In this document: positions 9,224-25,652 of the stretch, piece after piece
Position numbering within the stretch: the first letter of the stretch is position 1
How the letters are laid out: every line of letters starts with the position of its first letter
Assembly (NCBI GenBank): GCA_040755395.1
Contig: JBFMAX010000010.1
Location: 26,136 to 90,135, forward strand
Source: Nitrospirota bacterium
GTDB lineage: Bacteria > Nitrospirota > Nitrospiria > Nitrospirales > Nitrospiraceae
Length of the DNA stretch: 64,000 nt
Direction of reading: 5' to 3'
Translations under genes and position numbers: made by a program
Notes under the pieces: model-generated
Told to the model about the DNA's origin: nothing
Databases searched by the model: none
Seen by the model: only the letters and a program-made list of their open reading frames with translations

Positions 9224-11611
9224 TCAGAAGAGTGACCCGATGGTGAACTCGAAGACGCCTTTTCGCTCGAACGGTTTCGGATCCAGGTTGATCCCGTAGG
9301 CGGCCCGCAGCGGACCAAACGGCGAAATCCATCGGGCTTCGATCCCTGCCGCCGGCCGCAGATTGAACGAGAGCCGCTCGTCCTCGCCGGTGTTTGGGTC
9401 GCCGAAGCCCTTGCCGTAATCGAAGAAGATGACGCCGTTCAGCTTGGCTTCCGACGAAATCGGGAAAATGAAGTCCACGTTGAAAATGAGCTCCTTTGAA
9501 GCGCCCAGCAGAAATCCGTCCGGAGTCACCGGGCCGGCCCGGCCGAAAAAGAATCCTCTCACGGTGTTGATGCCGCCGACGAAGAATCGCTCCGTCAACG
9601 GAATGGGCTTTCCCCCGAGCCCTTCGACGATTCCGAACCGCGCCCGAAGCGAAATCCGCGTGTCGAACGGCAGCGGCGTGTATTTCAGGGTATCCAAGGC
9701 GAATTTGTAAAAGTTGTTGGTCCCACCCAGGTAGGGCGTGCCGAGGGACACATCGACGCTGTGGCGCCAGCCGGTGCGCGGATCCAAATAATAATCGCGC
9801 GTGTCGCGGGAAAGCCCGAAGCGAAATCCCGTGGTGCTCTGAGTCCCAAACTGGTCCCTGATGAACTGCGGGATATTCGTCGTGAAACCGAAGATGGACC
9901 CGGCGCTGGCGGTTCCTCCGAACGGGTTCAACGTATTTTGAAACGTGTTCGGATCGTCGTAGCGAATGATCTCCGCCACGGGGGTGAAATACCCCGAGAT
10001 GTATTCGGAAAACCACCGTCCGAACGTCGCGGAGACCCCGCGTTTCTCCTCGAAGAACGTGCCGAACAGCGTTTGGGTTGAATACACATCCAACTGGAGC
10101 GAGGTCAGCGAATCCTGGATGTAGGGATTCCGGAAGCTGATCAGGCCGATGGAGCGGAGCTGTCCCAACTGGCCGCGGATTCGGCCGGTATATCCCCGGC
10201 CGCCGAGATTCCCCTCGGTGATGTCAGCGATCAGGACGAACCGGTCCAACGTGCTGAAGCCGCCGCCGATACTGAACATGCCGGTCGATTTCTCTTTCAC
10301 TTTGACATCCAAGTCGACTTTGTCCGGTTCCACCTGCGTCGGCAGAATTTCGACGGTCTCGAAGTAGTTCAAATTGTTCAACCGCTGAAAGCTCCGTTTG
10401 ATCGAGACGGTGTCGATGACGTCCTGTTCGTCCAGGCGCAATTCCCGCCGAATGACGTTGTCGCGTGTCTTGTCGTTGCCGGTGATGTTGATCCGCCTGA
10501 TCCGCATCATCTCCCCTTCCTTGATATGGAACAGGATCGTGGCGGTCTTCTCTTGATTGTCGGGCGTCACCGACGGGCTCACGTCGGCGAACGCGTACCC
10601 TTTCGCCCCGTACATGTCCGTGATCCGCGTGATTTCGTCCCGAATCTTCGCCCGCTGAAAAATCTCACCGGGCGTAATTTTCAGACCCGCGCGCAACTCC
10701 GGATCCTCGAAGACGGTGTTGCCGCGGAAGCCGACCTCTTTCACCGTAAACGGCTCGCCTTCGACGATCCCATAAGTGACCGTAAACCACTTCTTGTCCT
10801 CCGACAACTCGACGGTCGGCATCCCGATCTGGACGTTCAGATAGCCCTTGTTCAGATAGACCTCTCGTATGCGCTCGATGTCGTTCGCGAGTTCCTCGCG
10901 CTTGAGAATGCCGGCATCCGACAAGAACGAGGGGAGCTTGAATTGCGTGAACAGGCCGTACCACGGAACCCATTCACGGGTGGCCATGACCTTGAAGAGT
11001 TCGTCTTTCGACACGGCCCTCATGCCGTCGAAGACGACCGTCTTGATGCGGGCCTTTTCCCCCTCTTTGATAAAGAACGTCAGGCGCTTGCGGTCTTCAT
11101 CCAGCGTCTGAATGACGGGAATCACTTCGGCTTTATAATAGCCGTCCTCTTGGTAGGTCTGCCTGATCTTCTCCGCGCTTTCTTTTGCCTGCTGTTGATC
11201 CAGAAACGACTGGCTCTTGATGGTGATTTTTTCTCTCAGCTTGTCTTCGCTCAGATTCTCGTTGCCGTCGAACACGATCTCGGTGATGAAGGGTTTCTCC
11301 CGGACCACGAAGACCACCAAGAACCCGCCCGGGACCGATTCGGTCTCCACCTGAACGTCTTCGAAAAATCCGGTCTCATACAGGATTCTGACCTGATTGC
11401 GGATCGCTTCCGGGGTATAGGGGTCGTCGACCTTCAGCGTAATCCGACCGCTGATCGCCGCCGCCTCGATCCGCTTGTTGCCCCGCACCTCGATGGATTT
11501 GACCAGCGGGATCGCCTCCTGGGCCGCTCCGTTCGTCGCGAAGACCAGGAGGCAGAAGACCGGCAGCAGAGGACCGGCTGCGCTCCACTGAGGTCGTTTC
11601 CTTTCGATCAC
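9224..11611 (-). CDS. bamA: Outer membrane protein assembly factor BamA
   Basis: 795 aa with a signal peptide. Five POTRA-like units: IEVRGNKRIE, ITEIVFDGNENL, IKTVVFDGMRAV, VKEVGFRGNTVF, IRRINITGNDKTRD. The C-terminal barrel ends FEFTIGSLF. Confidence 0.9.
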   Translation of the reverse strand: MIERKRPQWSAAGPLLPVFCLLVFATNGAAQEAIPLVKSIEVRGNKRIEAAAISGRITLKVDDPYTPEAIRNQVRILYETGFFEDVQVETESVPGGFLVVFVVREKPFITEIVFDGNENLSEDKLREKITIKSQSFLDQQQAKESAEKIRQTYQEDGYYKAEVIPVIQTLDEDRKRLTFFIKEGEKARIKTVVFDGMRAVSKDELFKVMATREWVPWYGLFTQFKLPSFLSDAGILKREELANDIERIREVYLNKGYLNVQIGMPTVELSEDKKWFTVTYGIVEGEPFTVKEVGFRGNTVFEDPELRAGLKITPGEIFQRAKIRDEITRITDMYGAKGYAFADVSPSVTPDNQEKTATILFHIKEGEMMRIRRINITGNDKTRDNVIRRELRLDEQDVIDTVSIKRSFQRLNNLNYFETVEILPTQVEPDKVDLDVKVKEKSTGMFSIGGGFSTLDRFVLIADITEGNLGGRGYTGRIRGQLGQLRSIGLISFRNPYIQDSLTSLQLDVYSTQTLFGTFFEEKRGVSATFGRWFSEYISGYFTPVAEIIRYDDPNTFQNTLNPFGGTASAGSIFGFTTNIPQFIRDQFGTQSTTGFRFGLSRDTRDYYLDPRTGWRHSVDVSLGTPYLGGTNNFYKFALDTLKYTPLPFDTRISLRARFGIVEGLGGKPIPLTERFFVGGINTVRGFFFGRAGPVTPDGFLLGASKELIFNVDFIFPISSEAKLNGVIFFDYGKGFGDPNTGEDERLSFNLRPAAGIEARWISPFGPLRAAYGINLDPKPFERKGVFEFTIGSLF

Positions 11612-17003: not shown

Positions 17004-18428
17004 ATGAAGTCCGCCGGTCGCTATCCCGCCAAGTTTCCCTATGATGGATCGGCGCTGATCGCCGACCCGATTCACGAGTACATCTCCTTCACAGTCCCCT
17101 ACTCGACCCCGGATCCGGCGGAACGAACGGAGAAGGACCTGATCGATTCCCCCTGGGTCCAGCGACTCCGGTACATCTATCAACTGCAAAGCGCGCGTTG
17201 GGTCTATCCGTCGGCCGAGCACAGCCGGTTCGTCCACTCGCTGGGCACCATGCACGTCGCCGGCCGGTTCGCGAAACACCTCTACCCGTTCCTGCGCGAG
17301 GTCGCCAAAGATGCGCCGTCGGCCAACTATGTCGAAGAACTGCTCCGCATCACGGCCCTGGTCCACGACATCGGCCACGGGCCGTTCTGCCATTTCTTCG
17401 ACGACAACTTCCTGAAGGCCTTCCACCTGACCCACGAGAAACTGGGGCAGATCATCATCCGGGACTATCTGGGCCCGATCATCCGCAAGATTCGCCGCAG
17501 TCCGTCCGGCCCGTTCGCCAAAGGCGAGGAACTGAACCCCGATCAGATCGCCCACCTGATTCTGAAGGACAAAGGCAAAGATTTCTCCCGGATGCCGCGC
17601 TGGCTGACCTTCCTCCAGCCGGTCATCTCCGGCAGCTACACTGCGGACAATCTGGACTATGTCCTCCGCGACTCCTACATGTGCGGCGTGGCGGTCGGGC
17701 CGGTCGATCTCAGCCGGCTCATCCACTACACGATCGTCACCGAGAAAGGCTTCACCATCCACAAGACCGGCCTACCGGCCCTCCAGATGTTCCTGAACAC
17801 GCGGATGTACCTCTATTCTAACGTGTACTACCACCGGACCACCAGAGCGATCGACATCCACCTGCGCGACATCTTCGGCGAGACGATGCGGCTGATCTTC
17901 CCCGGCGATCCGCGCAAACGGATGGAGGACTACCTGACTCTGACCGATTGGTCCTTGCTGGAAGAGGTGCGTGAGTGGAGGAAATCCCGGCAGGCGCCAC
18001 GCCGGCGACTCGGCGAAGAATGGGGACGGATCCTCGAACGCGACGTCAAGTGGAAGATGGCGTACAGCACGGTGTTGAAAGAGAAGGGGCAGGAGCGCGG
18101 CATGGATTTCCCGAGTCGCGAGCACTTCGAGCGGGTCATCCAGAAGGAACTGCCGGCCAAGCTGCAGAAAATCCCGTTCCGGGTCGATATGGCGCCGTTG
18201 GACCCGCGACCCGACCCGAAAGACACGCGCGGCATCCCGCTCTACGTATACGATCCGGGCACACGCTTGGTGTCCACCGAACCGCTGGAGGAGTTTCTGG
18301 ACCTCCTGCCCACCCGCCTCGTGCAATTCCGCATTTACACCCCCTCCCATGAGCACGATGCGGCTCTCTCCCAAGCCGCGGGGACTGTCCTCAATAAAGC
18401 CCCGTCGAGCATCGAGACGAATGTGTGA
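17004..18428 (+). CDS. HD-domain (SAMHD1/dGTPase-like) phosphohydrolase
   Basis: PWVQRLRYIYQLQSARWVYPSAEHSRFVHSLGTMHVAG ... LVHDIGHGPFCHFFD. Confidence 0.8.
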   Translation: MKSAGRYPAKFPYDGSALIADPIHEYISFTVPYSTPDPAERTEKDLIDSPWVQRLRYIYQLQSARWVYPSAEHSRFVHSLGTMHVAGRFAKHLYPFLREVAKDAPSANYVEELLRITALVHDIGHGPFCHFFDDNFLKAFHLTHEKLGQIIIRDYLGPIIRKIRRSPSGPFAKGEELNPDQIAHLILKDKGKDFSRMPRWLTFLQPVISGSYTADNLDYVLRDSYMCGVAVGPVDLSRLIHYTIVTEKGFTIHKTGLPALQMFLNTRMYLYSNVYYHRTTRAIDIHLRDIFGETMRLIFPGDPRKRMEDYLTLTDWSLLEEVREWRKSRQAPRRRLGEEWGRILERDVKWKMAYSTVLKEKGQERGMDFPSREHFERVIQKELPAKLQKIPFRVDMAPLDPRPDPKDTRGIPLYVYDPGTRLVSTEPLEEFLDLLPTRLVQFRIYTPSHEHDAALSQAAGTVLNKAPSSIETNV

Positions 18429-18720
18429 AGATCTGTCGTAAGAGTCTATCTCGGCTGATGAGCGAAGAAAGATGGCCGGGCTGATCGCTTCCACTCACAC
18501 CCATTGCACGAAGCCCGACTGGACAATGGGTACCCGGCCGTGTTGGTCCGCCGTAAGCCTCTGCTCCACTTGGCTGCGCAACTCGTTCCGTTCTGATCTT
18601 CGCTCGAATGGAGCTTCGAAACGTGCTCGCCGTTCTGCATCCGTTGCCCTTCCTCGTTTGCCAGTTGTAAGCCCTTGCGAGACATCCGCCGCGGTGATAG
18701 GCTGGGCGACCGAGGGCGCA

Positions 18721-19080
18721 ATGGGAGTGTTCTCCGTACATATCCGTGTCGCGAATCCTGCGGATCAAACTCGCTGGCGCGAGCTTGAGTTGATCGTGGA
18801 CACCGGCGCCACCCTGACTAAACTTCCCGGCGAGCTGTTGCAGGAGCTTCGCATTGCACCCCAGTTCTCCGTTCCCGCTGTCACGTCCGAGAATCGAACG
18901 GTCACGCGCCAGGTCGGCCAAGCCTGGGTCAGTCTTGATGGACGAGCGGGAATTGTACCGGTGGCTTATGGCGATCGTGGCGAACCCATCTTACTGGGAG
19001 CCACCACCTTGGAAATCCTTGGATTCACTGTCGACCCGATTGAGCAGAAACTCGTGCCCCGTCCCCTCCGCGAAAAATAA
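18721..19080 (+). CDS. Retropepsin-like (clan AA) aspartyl protease, ~119 aa
   Basis: MGVFSVHIRV...LELIVDTGATLTKLP...ILLGATTLEILG, with the D-T-G-A motif. The track extension from 18472 is S/R/C/W-rich and implausible. Confidence 0.65.
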   Translation: MGVFSVHIRVANPADQTRWRELELIVDTGATLTKLPGELLQELRIAPQFSVPAVTSENRTVTRQVGQAWVSLDGRAGIVPVAYGDRGEPILLGATTLEILGFTVDPIEQKLVPRPLREK

Positions 19081-19221
19081 TCAGAGACAGCCATTTTTCC
19101 ACTGCTCATCCGTTGCGCTCACCTGCCGAGCTTGGCCATGCTGAAAAGGGGCGGGAGTCTTTTATCGGCTGTCGTAGCCTTCACGCTTTGTAGGCATAAC
19201 TACAATTGGGCATGGCGTGAT

Positions 19222-19608
19222 TCACCACGGCTGAACGCCGCCTCCCTCCGAGACCCAATAGACCGCGATCTTCTGCCGGGCGCAGAAGGCCTGAAGCCCA
19301 TCCATGCGCTCACGGTAGTTGCGAGTGTCGGGCAAAGCGACCGCGACGTCGTCGCGGTTTTGGGGATTCTCTGTCTGCTTGATCGCGTTGAACAGCGCGT
19401 ACGAGACATTGCGCCAGGCGCGATCCCATTGGTTGGCTGCCTCAGTCTCACCCTTGCACTCCACGACGAGGCGCTTACCTGGTTTCGAGTTAAGGGCTTC
19501 AACATCAAAGCCCCTTCGCATGCCTAGGCGCGGCGGCGCGACATCGAAATCGCCGTGCTTGAGCCATGTCGCGATCGCGTTCTTCACCTGGTCTTCCGTG
19601 ATCGGCAT
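19222..19608 (-). CDS. Small hypothetical protein with a PD-(D/E)xK-like motif (cassette gene)
   Basis: AGGAGG lies 6 nt before ATG 19608. MPITEDQVKNAIATWLKHGDFDV...GFDVEAL...RLVVECKGE. The D...E.K arrangement resembles a restriction-endonuclease fold. Confidence 0.5.
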   Translation of the reverse strand: MPITEDQVKNAIATWLKHGDFDVAPPRLGMRRGFDVEALNSKPGKRLVVECKGETEAANQWDRAWRNVSYALFNAIKQTENPQNRDDVAVALPDTRNYRERMDGLQAFCARQKIAVYWVSEGGGVQPW

Positions 19609-19725
19609 CGCGAGCCTCCTATTCGAACAAGGGGTGAGTATGAAGCCCACAGGGACGGTCAGCAGCGTGAAAATGACGCTCAAAAGGCCACGGGATGATT
19701 CTGCATGACATTCCTCCTCTGTGGA

Positions 19726-19806
19726 GCCTAACGCTCCGCATGAACGGCCGAGCAGTAGCGAGGTTCGGCGCCACCTAGTGGCGCGAATTCGATGCGGTTG
19801 TTGGGC
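19726..19806 (-). mobile_element. attC-like integron recombination site (81 nt)
   Basis: On the minus strand: R'' GCCCAAC, L'' ccgcatCgaa, a structured spacer (GCGCCAC-tag-GTGGCGC), L' ttcatgcgg, R' GTTAGGC. One extrahelical base is present. The site starts 6 nt after the upstream stop codon. Confidence 0.6.
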
Positions 19807-19812
19807 TGTCGT

Positions 19813-20704
19813 CTACTCATGAACAATAGAGTCCAAAGAGAAGACATCTCCGCTCTCGCGTACCCAGTACTCTCTGCCACGGCGGATGGTCATGTCTGGC
19901 ACAGGCACAAGCGCTCTTGGATTGTGAATCAGGATGAAGTCGTCGCCCAACCGACGCGCCGGATTACCCGCATCTACATGCGAATAGAGAACCGCACTTA
20001 GGCGCCGATAACGGTCCTGAAAGAATACGTCCGTTTCGATTTCGGCGCCTTTCTTTCGCTCCACCGCGCGGCGATACTGATAGCTCGTTTCCGTGGGGAC
20101 GCTAGGGTCACGATGGAAGGTGACTTGCATGTCGCCGATAGGAAGAACAGCCCGTATGATTCGCGGAACCTCTCTCTAACCGTGCGTGCGGTATCTGACA
20201 ACCGTTTACCGCGACAATCCATGCGGAGTCGTTCGAAACGATCCCCTGGGCGGTGTACTTATCGAAGGCTCTAACCTTCGTCTCGATCGCGTGCCGTAGT
20301 CGCATGATGACCTCGTCGTCCGGAACACGTGTTGCCACCGGGGCACCAAAGTTGTAATCAGGTACGCGGTCAGGATTCTCATCAGAGCCCTGTGTGGGGC
20401 AAATGGCTTCGACCCAGATCGTTGTTTCTCCTAGGGACAGAAGGACGTCCGGCCCCGGTTTCGGGCAGGACACCGGGAGGCCAAGATCGAGTAAGGCGCA
20501 CGTGAGGTACATCTCCCAGAAGCGCTCGTCGAAAGCGCTCTGGATCTCCGTACGGAAGTGCCGGTCAGCATAGGGTCGATACGTTCGCCAGAGGCCCTCA
20601 GTCAGCTCCCGGGCAGCCATGGCAGGTTCAGATTCGCCGACACGAATATTGACGTAAGCCGGATCAGAGGCATCTGCGTCGGAGATGAAGAGTGGCTCAG
20701 TCAT
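19813..20704 (-). pseudogene. Frameshifted hypothetical cassette gene (~295 codons in two frames)
   Basis: Track ORFs 20108..20719 and 19813..20130 overlap and are collinear. The frame switches near the (ag)4 run at ~20170-20177. No family was recognised. Confidence 0.45.
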
Positions 20705-20710
20705 GAACCA

Positions 20711-20772
20711 GCCTAACACTGAAGCTCAGCCGTGCCCTGTCTTTGCGCGTCGGCTGCAGCGTTAGGTTAGGC
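20711..20772 (-). mobile_element. attC-like integron recombination site (62 nt)
   Basis: On the minus strand: R'' GCCTAAC (contains the DUF2442 TAA stop), L'' gctGcagccg, spacer, L' cggctgagc, R' GTTAGGC. The next ORF's ATG follows 6 nt later. R''/R' fit RYYYAAC/GTTRRRY and are perfectly complementary. Confidence 0.65.
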
Positions 20773-21012
20773 AGTCACACGGACAGTGTCGTGCAGGAAC
20801 TCGTGGGCAAAGTCCGCTCCGTTCGGCCAGACCAGGGTGTGAAACTCGGGATCCACACGAAACCGTTTGAACTGTTCGAGATCCCTGAGCGGCTCAAACA
20901 CTGGTCCTGTGAGTTCGGGTCCTAAATCGATTTCCCCCTCGGTTCCATCACGAAATTTCAACTTGACGACATAGCCTGATACGTACCGAGCTTCTATGAC
21001 GTGGTAGTCCAT
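20767..21012 (-). CDS. DUF2442-domain protein
   Basis: MDYHVIEARYVSGYVVKLKFRDGTEGEIDL...VWPNGADF. The usual partner of DUF4160. Confidence 0.75.
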   Translation of the reverse strand: MDYHVIEARYVSGYVVKLKFRDGTEGEIDLGPELTGPVFEPLRDLEQFKRFRVDPEFHTLVWPNGADFAHEFLHDTVRVTA

Positions 21013-21021
21013 GGCTTTCTC

Positions 21022-21144
21022 CTACTCCAGCGGCGGAATCCTCTTCAAGGGGTGGTGCTGCCGAGCAAGCTCCCAGTTTTCCAGCAGTTCACTTTTGCGA
21101 AGCTCATGCCGCTCTCGGACCAGCGCCAGCGCACGCCTGGGAAG
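21022..21144 (-). pseudogene. 5'-truncated DUF4160 remnant
   Basis: Only LPRRALALVRERHELRKSELLENWELARQHHPLKRIPPLE resembles the DUF4160 C-terminus. No PPHFH-type N-terminus exists in any frame. Upstream sequence is occupied by the end of ORF 21221..21949. Confidence 0.4.
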
Positions 21145-21220
21145 CTGGCCTGGGGGAACAAAAGGGGGCAGACCTCCGCGCGCGGGACGCGACCGCTGCA
21201 CGCCGAGGTTCGGCGCGTCG

Positions 21221-21949
21221 TCACTTGCACCCGCCCCAGCCCTGGATCGTCGTGAACGTTCTGCGCTCCCCCACCAGACCAAAGCTCACCTGATAATAGA
21301 AGGGCGGCACATACAGCGGGCTAGGCCGATCGGCGTAGAACACGAGCGTCTCCCGGTTGCCGTCTCGCTCGCGCCGAACGAGGACCTTCTCGATAAAGGT
21401 GGTCATCAAGCGTTCCGGGAACCAGCGGAGCCCAGCGACTACCTCCCGCTCCGGCGTGCCCTTCCGGAGCACCGCGTCAAGCTCGATTCGGCGCGGTGGA
21501 TTGCAACCCCGGGCGAACCAGGCATCGGCCTGCGCCAGCGTTTCGCGGACTGGCAGCCGGGTGCCGGTGACTGGGTGGACGAAACTCCAGTCATCGAGCC
21601 GCGCGGTATCGTCGAGCCAGACCTTCAGCATCACCGCGGGGATATCCAGACCATGAGCCCCTGCACGGATCGGATACCACCAGTCCACCGAGACTCGACT
21701 CTCGGCGGTAAATGGCGGCTGCCCGAGGCGCCCTTCGACCTCCTCCGGGGTGCTCGTGGCGGTGATCCAGCCCACGTCCAGCCGCATCCGATCGACCTCC
21801 GGCAGGGGAGCGACGCTACGGTCAGTGCACGTGCCAGTTACGGAGGCGACGGCGACTACTAGCGGTATGACGACCAGCGCAACGCCCCGAACGGCCCTCA
21901 AGGTCGGGCCCTCCCGAAGCCCATATCCTACGCCAAATTTATCGCTCAT
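21221..21949 (-). CDS. Hypothetical exported or membrane-anchored protein (242 aa)
   Basis: N-terminal hydrophobic segment VALVVIPLVVAVASVTGTC. No family was recognised. It shares the 13-mer cgaggttcggcgc (21203-21215) with attC 19726-19806. Confidence 0.45.
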   Translation of the reverse strand: MSDKFGVGYGLREGPTLRAVRGVALVVIPLVVAVASVTGTCTDRSVAPLPEVDRMRLDVGWITATSTPEEVEGRLGQPPFTAESRVSVDWWYPIRAGAHGLDIPAVMLKVWLDDTARLDDWSFVHPVTGTRLPVRETLAQADAWFARGCNPPRRIELDAVLRKGTPEREVVAGLRWFPERLMTTFIEKVLVRRERDGNRETLVFYADRPSPLYVPPFYYQVSFGLVGERRTFTTIQGWGGCK

Positions 21950-22105
21950 CAGCCGAACTATTAAGTCTGCTGCAGGCTACCCGCGCAGCATAGCATGGGA
22001 ACCTCAGCGCTCCACTGGAAGGCAAGTCTACTGAACAATCAAACGCTTCTTCAAGATTTCATCCTGCTTCGCCCACCGGGATAGACTGCGAATCCCGCAG
22101 ACATA

Positions 22106-22164
22106 GAAACAGGGACAGGCTACTTTTCGCGAGCAGTTGTATCAACTCGGAGTCGGCGGGAAAG
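22106..22164 (-). promoter_or_regulatory. Copy A of a 59-nt repeated promoter-like module
   Basis: Minus strand TTGATA-17 nt-TAGCCT. About 80% identical to 24315-24373. Lies ~160 nt upstream of ORF 21221..21949. Confidence 0.45.
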
Positions 22165-22329
22165 GATGGGAAAGGACACCAAGACGGTCGGGAAGGGGCT
22201 TCCGCGATGATGACGCTGTTGTCGTAGCGAGGACGGCGCCTCGCTCGTTTAGTAAAAAACATGCCTGGAATGCCCCATGTTTGTCGAGGCGCTTTGTACG
22301 TGGACATGGTGGTGAGCGTGAGTTGACGC

Positions 22330-24150
22330 TTACATGCGAGCCAACACTTCTCGGACCTTGCCCGCCAAGGTTCTGGACGTAAAGGGTTTCTGAAGAAAGT
22401 TCACGTCCGACGAGATCACCCCTCGAGGCCCCAGCACATCATCCGGGTAGCCCGACATATAAAGCACCCTGATCTCTGGTCGAAGCGACTTGACGTGCCG
22501 GCCCAGCTCCGGACCGTGCATCCCGGGCATGATCACGTCGCTGAGCAGCAGATGGAGCGGGCCTCGATAGGTGTCGAGGATCTGCAACGCCTCAAGGCCG
22601 TTGGCGGCTTCAAGCACGCGATAACCATGGCGTTCCAGAGACTCACGCGCAATCGCTCTGATCGTCGCTTCGTCTTCCACGAGGAGGACGGTTTCCGTGC
22701 CTCGGTCTGGAACGGCAGCCAGTTGGTCTCTTGCAGGCGTTTCCTGTGCCGTCTTGCTCGATTGTGGAAAATAGATCTTGAAGGTCGTCCCTTGACCGAG
22801 CGCGGTCTCCACCGCCACGTAGCCCTTGTTCTGTTTCACGATCCCGTACACTGTCGAAAGACCCAATCCAGTGCCCTTTCCGGGTCGTTTGGTGGTGAAA
22901 AAGGGCTCGAAGAGACGGACTTGGGTCTCGGAATCCATTCCCATTCCGGTGTCTTGTATCGACAGCATGACATGCGGGCCGACCTGACTCCCGGGGTGAC
23001 TTTGAGCGAACGCCGCATCCATGAGGACATTGGCGGTCGCAATGGTGAGTACGCCGCCCTGCGGCATAGCGTCCTGCGCATTAAGAACGAGGTTCATAAT
23101 AAGTTGATGCAATTGAGCGGGGTCCATTTGCACCTGCTGAAGATCCGGAGTGAGGTCCAGTCGCAATTCGATGTGTTCCCCTATCACCCGCCTGAGCATC
23201 TCGGCCATCTCTGTGACAACCGTGTTCAAATCGATGACGACGGGTTGAATGGTCTGTCGCCTACTGAAGGTGAGAAGACGACGAGTCAAAGCTGTAGCCC
23301 GCTCCCCCGCGCGTCGAATCTGGACGATTTTCGCCAGACGGGGATCGTCCGGATCGAACTCTATTTCCAAATCATCAGCGTATCCGTTGATGACCGTGAG
23401 AAGATTATTAAAGTCATGGGCGATGCCGCCTGCCAATTGACCGATGCCTTCCATTTTCTGCATGTGGCGAAGCTGTGCTTCCAATGCGCTTTCACGCTGG
23501 TGGCGGCGGTAACTATCATAAAGGGCCCCGACGGCCTGAGTCAGGAGCTCAAGCTGGGACAACTCCGTCCCCGTATATCCACCGGGCCGGTTGGCGACTC
23601 CGATCAGCCCCACGACTTCCGAGCCTCGCAACGTGGGCACGCCCAGGAAATGACGGAGAGGCGGATGACCGGGCGGAAGCCCGCCGGCCCGAGGATCGGC
23701 AGCCGGATCATTGGCAAGCACAGGCTGACCGCTTGTGATGGCCAAGCCAAACAAATTATCAAAGCGGGTGAATTCCAAATACCCGACCGCTTGATACGCG
23801 CGCAGAGCCGTCTCATAGAATTCCCTGTTGACGGTCTGATCCCAGACGATCCCTTCGTGGGCAAGGATCCGTAACACCGGACCCTCCACAACGACCCCTA
23901 TAAATCCGTACTCACTGGCGGTCTGTTCCAACACCACGCGCAGGAGGCAGGCGCTCGCCTCTCGCCAGTTTCCACTGCCGAGAAAGGTCAGCATAGTCCT
24001 ATGGATCGCTTCCAGTTGTGTGGTTTTACTCTGAAGCGCCTCCTCTGCTTGCCGATGCGCCGCTTCCGCTCGTTCGAGTTGGCGACAACGTTCACGCAAG
24101 CGAGTCAGTTCCTCGATCAACGCTTCTCTTGTTAACTCGTCATCGACCAT
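22330..24150 (-). CDS. Hybrid sensor histidine kinase (coiled coil-GAF-HisKA-HATPase-REC)
   Basis: GGGAGG lies before ATG 24150 (MVDDELTREALIEEL). H-box GGIAHDFNNLL, N-box NLVLNAQDAM, G-boxes DTGMGM and GKGTGLGLS. C-terminal receiver VLLVEDE...LLLSDVIMPGM. Confidence 0.85.
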   Translation of the reverse strand: MVDDELTREALIEELTRLRERCRQLERAEAAHRQAEEALQSKTTQLEAIHRTMLTFLGSGNWREASACLLRVVLEQTASEYGFIGVVVEGPVLRILAHEGIVWDQTVNREFYETALRAYQAVGYLEFTRFDNLFGLAITSGQPVLANDPAADPRAGGLPPGHPPLRHFLGVPTLRGSEVVGLIGVANRPGGYTGTELSQLELLTQAVGALYDSYRRHQRESALEAQLRHMQKMEGIGQLAGGIAHDFNNLLTVINGYADDLEIEFDPDDPRLAKIVQIRRAGERATALTRRLLTFSRRQTIQPVVIDLNTVVTEMAEMLRRVIGEHIELRLDLTPDLQQVQMDPAQLHQLIMNLVLNAQDAMPQGGVLTIATANVLMDAAFAQSHPGSQVGPHVMLSIQDTGMGMDSETQVRLFEPFFTTKRPGKGTGLGLSTVYGIVKQNKGYVAVETALGQGTTFKIYFPQSSKTAQETPARDQLAAVPDRGTETVLLVEDEATIRAIARESLERHGYRVLEAANGLEALQILDTYRGPLHLLLSDVIMPGMHGPELGRHVKSLRPEIRVLYMSGYPDDVLGPRGVISSDVNFLQKPFTSRTLAGKVREVLARM

Positions 24151-24314
24151 GGGCCTCCCTCTGAAGTTGAAGCGACCGGCAGCTTGTTGCCGTACAATTG
24201 CCGACTCTTGAGTAGAATGAGTTCTTTTCCAACCATCGGAGCATACGTTATCTCGTTCGTGAAATCGAGAGGGAGGGGTTGCGAGCGCTTCCGCCGAGCG
24301 GCTTCTGAGGCCGC

Positions 24315-24373
24315 GAAACAGGGACAGGCTACTTTTTGTAAGTAGTTGTGTCAACTCGGTATCGACTGGAAAG
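24315..24373 (-). promoter_or_regulatory. Copy B of the 59-nt repeated promoter-like module
   Basis: Minus strand TTGACA-17 nt-TAGCCT. Contains the palindromes ctactttttgtaagtag and agttgtgtcaact. Lies ~170 nt upstream of the kinase ATG. Confidence 0.45.
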
Positions 24374-24431
24374 TATTTTCATGCACTCCACAAAAGGGTT
24401 GGTGGGGCCTGCGTCGCGAATTGTGCGGATT

Positions 24432-24569
24432 CACCCGTTGCTCTACGCGATGCAACGGGTGCCCGGCTCCGTACTTGCCGAGTAAATGCTGTCCGCTCAA
24501 GCGGACGCCGAGGACTGTTCGCAGTTCCATTCGAGCCGGGGACCCGTTGCGTTCAAATTTGCGACGGGT
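24432..24569. repeat. Two paralogous 10-bp-stem hairpins in a ~500-nt non-coding region
   Basis: First hairpin: cacccgttgc-tctacgcgat-gcaacgggtg (24432-24461). Second hairpin: acccgttgc-gttcaaattt-gcgacgggt (24542-24569). Both loops are 10 nt. Confidence 0.5.
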
Positions 24570-24665
24570 GGACGGAATGGAACAAGTTCCGCAGGCGAGC
24601 AGATAGGAGGCTTAGTACGGTTGCCCCGGAGCACTGAGCAGCACGGAACCCGCCAGCCTTTTTGG

Positions 24666-25652
24666 TTATTCTTTCGCCGGAACGGCTACGGAGGCGGGTG
24701 TCGCTTCGGGAGCGGCGCCGTTGCGGGGGAACGGGAGATCGAGGAGGGCGTAGGGATTGACCCGCGCGCCGTTGAGCTTGACGCCCCAATGGAGATGCGG
24801 TCCGGTCGCGCGGCCGGTGGCGCCGACCTTCCCGATCACCTGGCCGGCTCTTACCAGATCGCCGTCACGCACGAGCACTTCCGAGAGGTGGAAGTACATG
24901 GAATACAGCCCCAGTCCATGATCGAGAAAGATGCCCTTGCCGGAAAAGAAATGATCGACCGTAAGGCGAACGACCCCGTCATTGCTTGCCACGACCTCCG
25001 TGCCCAGCGGCGCGCCGATGTCTTCGCCGTTGTGCGGACTGCGCGGTTGCCCGTTGAGCACCCGCACGCTGCCGAACACCCCGGTCTTCGATCCCCGCAC
25101 CGGCTCAATGAAAGAGGCCTGCCACAGCCGGAGCCGGGAATCCTGGGCCAACGCGGTTCGAATCTGCTCCTGCTCGGCCTTCCAGCGGGCCAAGGCCTTT
25201 TCATCCAGGTCCACCTTGTCCTTGGGCAACTTCAGATACTCGACCGAGAATTTTTCCTTGATGACCAGGACGTTGTAGCTTAATCGGCGCGCCTGCTCGC
25301 CGGATCGAACCTCCACCGCCAGTTCATGCGTCCCCGGTTCATCCTGCATGTCGATGCCCAGCAATCCCACATAACCGGGAGGCTCGCCCGGCCGCGGTTC
25401 GAGGAAGAAGGGAACGCGGCGCCCGAGGAACGTTCCTTCCACGTCGGTGATTCCTTCTCCCGCAGGCACCTTCACGACGATGACTTGCCCCTGCTTACCG
25501 CTGTACTGGCCGTCCGATCCTTTCTGCGGCGCGGGCGTGTTCGGCAACAACTCCACCGGAAACACGCTGGCCAGCAGGATAATAGAGGTCACGGCCAGGC
25601 GGTCGGCCCGCGACATGCCTTTCGCATGTTGCCGTGACGTATCGGTAGTCAT
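24666..25652 (-). CDS. M23-family metallopeptidase
   Basis: PHNGEDIGAP ... MYFHLSEVLV ... GATGRATGPHLHWGV (H...D and H.H motifs). ATG 25652 overlaps the pafA stop (ATGA). The track ORF extension to 26180 is an out-of-frame shadow of pafA. Confidence 0.85.
   Translation of the reverse strand: MTTDTSRQHAKGMSRADRLAVTSIILLASVFPVELLPNTPAPQKGSDGQYSGKQGQVIVVKVPAGEGITDVEGTFLGRRVPFFLEPRPGEPPGYVGLLGIDMQDEPGTHELAVEVRSGEQARRLSYNVLVIKEKFSVEYLKLPKDKVDLDEKALARWKAEQEQIRTALAQDSRLRLWQASFIEPVRGSKTGVFGSVRVLNGQPRSPHNGEDIGAPLGTEVVASNDGVVRLTVDHFFSGKGIFLDHGLGLYSMYFHLSEVLVRDGDLVRAGQVIGKVGATGRATGPHLHWGVKLNGARVNPYALLDLPFPRNGAAPEATPASVAVPAKE

Follow-up and report, generated by a model that had tools for sequence, protein, structure and literature searches.

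In the 64-kb stretch of Nitrospirota DNA analysed here (hereafter the window), we identified a short and decayed fragment of an integron cassette array, which lies without a nearby integrase in a horizontally acquired islet at a hypervariable spot. We give a probability of about 0.9 to the reading that it is a genuine CALIN (a cluster of attC sites that has no integron integrase with it). The fragment consists of three co-oriented cassettes on the minus strand: a DUF4160 gene fragment and a DUF2442 gene closed by a first attC site (attC1), a PD-T7-5-like gene closed by a second site (attC2), and an XisH-like gene followed by the R'' box only of a third. The two attCs are 966 nt apart on the same strand, each directly follows an open reading frame (ORF), and the window has no homolog of the integrase IntI, which together place the array among the CALINs. 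An earlier reading made from the letters alone (the sequence-only reading) had proposed a degenerate, integrase-less, CALIN-like array, and our analysis supports this proposal, attC1 through covariance models, attC2 through a cassette that recurs elsewhere, and the lack of an integrase through a homology search.

The bottom strand of an attC site folds into a hairpin, and the tyrosine recombinase IntI recognises its R and L boxes together with its extrahelical bases. IntI cuts between G and TT, thereby excising or inserting whole cassettes.

Two attC sites in the register of class 1 integrons

Overall, the R' consensus GTTRRRY occurred 76 times in the window against 72.5 expected, so the motif alone means nothing. 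A structural scan for the full attC architecture on both strands matched only attC1 and attC2 in the 64 kb, with a mean of 0.12 matches per window in shuffled sequences. The same scan gave one weaker match in our comparison set, which comprises 80 related Nitrospira loci carrying the gene for the HD hydrolase at the left edge of the islet, with 10-kb flanks each and 1.24 Mb in total. The sequence-only reading had named conservation of the two sites in all relatives among the results that would speak against it; both sequences are absent from all 80 relatives.

As references we used the aadA1 attC, which R100 and about 2,000 other plasmids contain at 100% identity, and ten attCs read from annotated class 1 integrons. 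The register was the same in 10/10 of the latter: an R'' box of 7 nt, a 5-nt spacer, three paired bases, a bulge at position 16 and the remaining L stem, with the other arm running from L' through 5-6 nt to R'. Both sites in the window fit this register exactly. As had been proposed, both combine an R'' box of the form RYYYAAC and an R' box of the form GTTRRRY with complementary L boxes that leave one base extrahelical.

attC1 (20711..20772, minus strand) is structurally complete at 62 nt. Read from 20772 to 20711, it runs GCCTAAC-CTAAC-GCT[G]CAGCCG-(18 nt)-CGGCTGAGC-TTCAGT-GTTAGGC. Its R'' and R' boxes, GCCTAAC and GTTAGGC, pair at 7/7 positions, the L boxes form 9 bp, the bulge sits at position 16, and the spacers are 5 and 6 nt long. 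The L'' box GCTGCAGCCG and the L' box CGGCTGAGC are identical to those of the cmlA1 attC. The stop codon of the DUF2442 gene, TAA, sits inside R'' (GCC TAA C), and the next ATG follows 6 nt past R' (after tggttc). Direct reading thereby confirmed the site, its strand, its full architecture and the close ATG, all of which had been claimed. As DNA, it folds at -16.7 kcal/mol (z=-2.3). A blastn search against plasmids gave no useful matches for attC1, which makes too short and too divergent a query.

attC2 (19726..19806, minus strand) is 81 nt long, with the canonical register, a short L stem and a branched centre. Read from 19806 to 19726, it runs GCCCAAC-AACCG-CAT[C]GAA...TTCATG-CGGAGC-GTTAGGC, again with the bulge at position 16 and spacers of 5 and 6 nt, and its boxes GCCCAAC and GTTAGGC pair at 6/7 positions. 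Its place, strand and architecture agree with the earlier claim, and the longer pairing of ccgcatCgaa with ttcatgcgg that had been described is real. The fold has a z-score of -2.7 to -3.1.

We then scored the sites with surrogate covariance models, which were built here with the window excluded and are distinct from the attC model of IntegronFinder. One model (R1) was derived from 7 plasmid attCs, the other (R2) from 18 attCs of plasmids and two environmental arrays. In the seed alignment the attC centres were masked with N, three attCs with 5-nt spacers were left out, and estX was added back by model-based realignment. R1 is narrow: genuine long attCs held out from it (estX, dfrA1 and arr-3) scored only 13-19 bits. 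In the 1.24 Mb of related Nitrospira loci, R1 and R2 gave 0 matches each. A covariance model had been put forward as the check on both sites, and the outcome was clear for attC1, which scored 38.6 bits with R1 (E=1.6e-8) and 45.6 bits with R2 (E=2e-10), and borderline for attC2, which scored 13.4 bits with R2 (E=0.23 in the window, E=0.023 in the islet). The latter was the third-best match in the window, at full length, with exact coordinates and on the right strand; R1 did not report attC2 at E<=10 in the window. The reverse strands scored much lower, at 16-17 bits (16.9) for attC1 and 7.3 bits for attC2, which fits the orientation of the genes.

Cassette 2 recurs in an unrelated array

For attC2, the recurrence of the cassette that it bounds weighs more than the model score. 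Cassette 2 is a complete 985-bp unit (19732..20716, minus strand) that starts with the TTAGGC following the crossover point of attC1 and closes with the G of the R' box in attC2. It aligned over its full length, at 85.2% identity, with positions 9989-10975 (987 bp) of locus L091, a 1.03-Mb contig with four attCs, of which the three besides the attC2 homolog lie on the same strand. Outside the boundaries, identity fell to 51% and 46% in the 150 nt on each side. Similarity that ends at both G/TT junctions is the signature of a mobile cassette, and on this alignment cassette 2 is a discrete mobile unit bounded at its G/TT crossover points. The attC2 homolog in L091 (10901-10981) is also 81 nt long and begins 7 nt past the stop codon of the gene for P0001, an 86% identical homolog of the cassette 2 protein.

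The gene in cassette 2 (19813..20704, minus strand) is a pseudogene of a 297-aa protein related to PD-T7-5 and PD-T7-1, split into ORFs of 198 aa and 105 aa. The frameshift that had been proposed between the two sites was borne out, and the alignment gap shows it to be a loss of 2 nt from an (AG)n run, between 20178 and 20177. The joined protein has many intact homologs. Among them, P0001 matches the PADLOC models PD-T7-5 (E=6.8e-18) and PD-T7-1, and its predicted fold, with a predicted local distance difference test score (pLDDT) of 93.1, gave no significant match in the PDB and only weak hints of a nuclease.

This gene family keeps company with attCs in other loci. In three loci with close homologs (L178-L180), the gene starts 6 nt past R', behind different upstream attCs, so that the upstream attC differs among the window, L091 and L178-L180. 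Scanning 80 more distant homolog loci from metagenomes with R2 yielded 11 attCs, all of them (11/11) on the strand of the gene, and an attC abuts the gene in 6/80 loci. In other metagenome loci, inspection by eye showed an attC-like sequence right past the stop codon, often with the TAA within R''.

The outer cassettes are truncated

Cassette 1 carries a pair of genes. The first is the 3' fragment of a DUF4160 gene for a DhiT-like toxin (21022..21150, minus strand), which matches the Pfam DUF4160 profile at positions 39-65 only. The second, the last gene of the cassette, encodes an 81-aa DhiA-like antitoxin with a DUF2442 domain (20767..21012, minus strand; Pfam PF10387, E=8e-13); its match to the NCBIfam DhiA antitoxin is weak, and homologs at 93% identity exist. 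DUF4160 and DUF2442 form the DhiTA toxin-antitoxin pair (PMC8198452). An intact DUF4160-DUF2442 pair lies within a run of co-oriented small genes in locus L181, where DNA homology to the window, at 86% identity, spans 21150 to the DUF2442 stop codon. Since this homology begins at 21150, about 44 first codons of the DUF4160 gene and everything upstream in the array were lost. The Pfam profiles and the L181 homology thus agree with the sequence-only reading, which had described a DUF2442 gene next to a truncated DUF4160 gene. Locus L183, also from Nitrospira, has the pair on its own and no attC with it, so the family is not only cassette-borne.

Cassette 3 contains a gene for a 128-aa XisH-like protein (19222..19608, minus strand), identical to MEW6247828.1 at NCBI, from a Nitrospirota metagenome-assembled genome. 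The protein had no Pfam match. Its AlphaFold2 model (pLDDT 92.7) gave XisH (2inb, E=2e-4), NucS and FokI as the best Foldseek matches, and D35, E50 and K52 are invariant in 19 homologs. By its predicted fold and these invariant residues, it is a protein with the restriction-endonuclease-like fold of the PD-(D/E)xK superfamily, as had been guessed from the letters. A homolog in locus L093 directly follows two attCs (40 and 32 bits with R1), one of which closely resembles attC1, and a homolog in locus L097 likewise comes straight after an attC and is itself followed by a full one.

The comparison with L097 also explains the end of the array. The sequence GCCCAAT (19205..19211, minus strand, read from 19211 to 19205) takes the position of the R'' box GCCCAAC of L097 within the same flanking bases (GCCATGCCCAA[C/T]), and the homology stops there. 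It is the R'' relic of the attC that cassette 3 has lost and marks the 3' truncation point of the array. A collapsed remnant had been proposed at 19211->19194, as GCCCAAT-tgta-GTTATGC; its R'' part stands through the L097 homology, while GTTATGC as an R' box, and with it a complete site, was rejected, as it fails the consensus and reaches 5 bits on the wrong strand.

Several further features concern cassette 3 and its family. About 120 nt (19609-19731) separate the preceding R' box from the ATG of cassette 3, against 15-20 nt in homologs; this extra stretch begins with a ribosome-binding site and a 9-codon ORF (ATGCAGAATCATCCCGTGGCCTTTTGA), and may represent the beginning of a further cassette, joined on through a deletion. 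In L093 (2300-2520), a long inverted-repeat insertion resembling a miniature inverted-repeat transposable element (MITE) interrupts the attC downstream of the homolog. Locus L094 (1-9494) holds thirteen co-oriented small genes in a cassette-array-like arrangement, a homolog from the cassette 3 family and a HicAB pair among them. Neither R1 nor R2 detected an attC there, so its attC type may be divergent.

No IntI homolog in the window

A tblastn search with IntI1 at E<=10 found no IntI homolog in the 64-kb window, in line with the claim that intI is missing from it. The array is also not a complete integron: in addition to the missing IntI, its 5' end is the deletion inside the DUF4160 gene at 21150. 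No promoter-like site was present upstream of the array on the minus strand. The promoter and terminator scan of the islet gave nothing of note, and a T-run terminator is not present. In Rfam, the window had no match at the gathering threshold and the islet none at E<=1, and no attC family appeared at either level.

A strain-specific islet at a hypervariable spot

The host setting is a Nitrospira-type genome, and the HD-hydrolase protein was found exactly on a Logan contig of SRR29635775. The array lies in a strain-specific islet of 6.2 kb (18429..24665, no strand assigned), which extends from the stop codon of the HD-hydrolase gene to that of an M23-peptidase gene and contains an aspartic protease gene, the cassette array, orf242 and a GAF histidine kinase gene. 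Conservation with loci L002-L004 (88-90% DNA identity) breaks off at 18428 and sets in again at 24666. In the closest relatives (95-96% identity of the HD protein), the gap between the HD and M23 genes is 0.8-1.4 kb of unrelated sequence, and the whole stretch 18429-24665, including the GAF kinase gene, is absent. Across the loci showing both flanks, the gap ranges from 376 bp to 6.2 kb, and in several other loci it exceeds 10 kb. Across Nitrospira (L002-L081), this HD-M23 gap on the downstream side of the HD gene is hypervariable.

This synteny changes part of the earlier picture. A lower-GC islet had been placed at 18429-22329, and the dip is real (GC content of 0.593 against 0.614 for the whole window), while the true extent is larger: at 0.585, 18429-24665 has the lowest GC content of any 6.2-kb stretch in the window. 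The GAF kinase had been placed outside the islet, as one of its borders, which proved wrong. Because conserved synteny resumes only at the M23-peptidase stop codon (24666), the kinase belongs to the variable islet, and the core flank is the M23-peptidase gene. The comparison of the locus in relatives, which had been suggested as a check, accordingly showed an islet absent from the closest ones.

The islet has a number of other features beside the array. At its left end, on the strand opposite to the array, a gene for a 119-aa clan AA (retropepsin-like) aspartic protease (18721-19080, plus strand) has no counterpart in any of the relatives and no adjacent attC. A 62-nt direct repeat with 84% identity (22106-22167 and 24315-24376) brackets the GAF histidine kinase gene, which suggests that the gene's insertion or duplication was independent of the cassette array. 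The stretch 21967-22099 matches the HD-M23 gap of L002 and L004 at 70-75% identity in reverse orientation, so it is ancestral intergenic DNA now inverted within the islet. Close to the two ends of the islet, the window also has two copies (18548-18633 and 24469-24658), in inverted orientation, of a conserved element of about 90-190 nt whose 13-bp hairpin stays paired despite several two-sided changes. In L025, L073 and L080 this element is found immediately downstream of the M23-peptidase gene; a shorter match occurs in L042. The element had no match in Rfam. In L070, the HD-M23 gap contains a tyrosine recombinase of 355 aa that is flanked by a RelE-type pair and a Cas3-like HD gene. The recombinase was rejected as an IntI: read by eye, it looks to be of the phage type, and only a 57-residue stretch matches IntI1.

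Origin of the array and alternative explanations

Because IntI is lacking in cis, both ends of the array are deleted and all three cassettes show decay, we consider the array to be probably inert by now and decaying: its toxin gene is truncated, a frameshift of 2 nt has arisen and one attC is gone. Expression of the cassettes would depend on read-through from upstream genes. We infer that attC1, and possibly attC2, would still be structurally competent substrates if an integrase were supplied in trans. Most likely, it was brought in on a larger transferred fragment and not assembled in situ. Several points weigh against this account. The attC scores come from our surrogate models rather than from that of IntegronFinder, and with these attC2 is not significant alone and was missed by R1; only one full-length attC2 homolog was found, too few for a covariation test. 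The integrase search covers 64 kb, so a distant intI elsewhere in the genome is possible. The truncation at both ends makes the route of arrival unreadable from any junction.

That the two sites are chance palindromes, terminator hairpins or members of a host repeat family, of the repetitive extragenic palindromic (REP) or MITE type, is hardly credible. The chance frequency of GTTRRRY and the modest z-scores of the folds (-2.3 to -3.1) would fit such an origin, yet attC1 fits models derived from clinical attCs at E=1e-8 to 1e-10, there are no further copies in the window or in the 1.24 Mb of relatives, T-run terminators are lacking, and the unit of gene plus attC recurs in L091. The model scores, the absence of other copies and the recurrence of the cassette refute this reading. 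Somewhat less improbable, although still unlikely, is a satellite array of a living integron, in which an intI elsewhere in the same genome would still excise and reshuffle the cassettes in trans. The structurally perfect attC1, whose R boxes pair at 7/7 positions and whose 9-bp L boxes are the same as in the mobile cmlA1 attC, and the end-to-end completeness of cassette 2 speak for it, and trans use of CALIN cassettes was reportedly proposed by Cury and colleagues in 2016. On the other hand, decay has reached all three cassettes and IntI is missing from the 64 kb. Complete genomes of the phylum Nitrospira, moreover, gave only two CALINs, both reported in Ca. Nitrospira inopinata (IntegronFinder 2.0, PMC9024848).

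An integrase can also insert cassettes outside att sites, as has been demonstrated (bioRxiv 10.1101/2022.09.11.507474), and direct insertion into the chromosome at such a non-att site (the attG route) would suit an intergenic hotspot that in relatives contains anything between 376 bp and >10 kb. Here, however, the ends of the array are deletions inside cassettes (DUF4160 at 21150 and the R'' box of cassette 3) rather than junctions between attC and genome, the array is embedded among unrelated islet genes (the aspartic protease, orf242 and the GAF kinase), and the repeats in the islet suggest other rearrangements; we regard this route as quite unlikely. A more speculative proposal, which we consider doubtful, is that the array records recent cassette traffic into an integrase-less nitrifier lineage. 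Phage-defence cargo (the PD-T7-5-like gene, the XisH-like nuclease and the DhiTA pair) would then have been delivered by a foreign IntI in trans, or by the attG route, into a chromosomal hotspot marked by the unannotated conserved hairpin element, which would serve as a landing pad that can be reused. The gap between the HD and M23 genes would, in that case, be a hotspot for defence islands in Nitrospira. We thus favour a decayed CALIN that came with a larger transferred fragment. It offers a clean, boundary-resolved case of integron cassettes reaching the environmentally important Nitrospira, for which two CALINs have been reported so far; one 985-bp cassette is common to the window and an unrelated array at 85% identity, and two uncharacterised cassette families are tied to likely nuclease or phage-defence roles. 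Nothing in it alters existing knowledge of integrons: the type of relic is already known, including in Nitrospira, and the case is real but ordinary.

Comparison with known systems

The CALIN class was defined in 2016 (Cury et al. 2016, PMC4889954). Like its other members (PMC4889954; PMC9024848), the array has two attCs less than 4 kb apart on one strand, promoterless ORFs and no nearby intI, and its visible decay is as expected if CALINs are degraded integrons. It differs in its very small size, with two attCs plus one R'' relic where CALINs have about 6 attCs on average, and in being truncated inside cassettes at both ends and embedded in a larger strain-specific islet.

The attCs themselves resemble those of the cmlA1 and aadA cassettes of class 1 integrons, with which they share the register 7 + 5 + (3 + bulge + 6) ... 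9 + 6 + 7, and the cmlA5 attC has the same R''/R' pair as attC2, GCCCAAC/GTTAGGC. By contrast, the central regions are unrelated to those of cmlA1 and aadA, the host is a nitrifier chromosome rather than a plasmid, and there is no resistance gene. In cargo, the array is closer to sedentary chromosomal integron arrays (PMC13108822; bioRxiv 10.1101/2024.07.02.601686), with which it shares a DhiTA-type toxin-antitoxin pair, a PD-T7-5-like gene and a small nuclease. Unlike those arrays, it has no integrase, attI or Pc promoter, comprises only three cassettes, and carries its toxin and defence genes in inactivated form.

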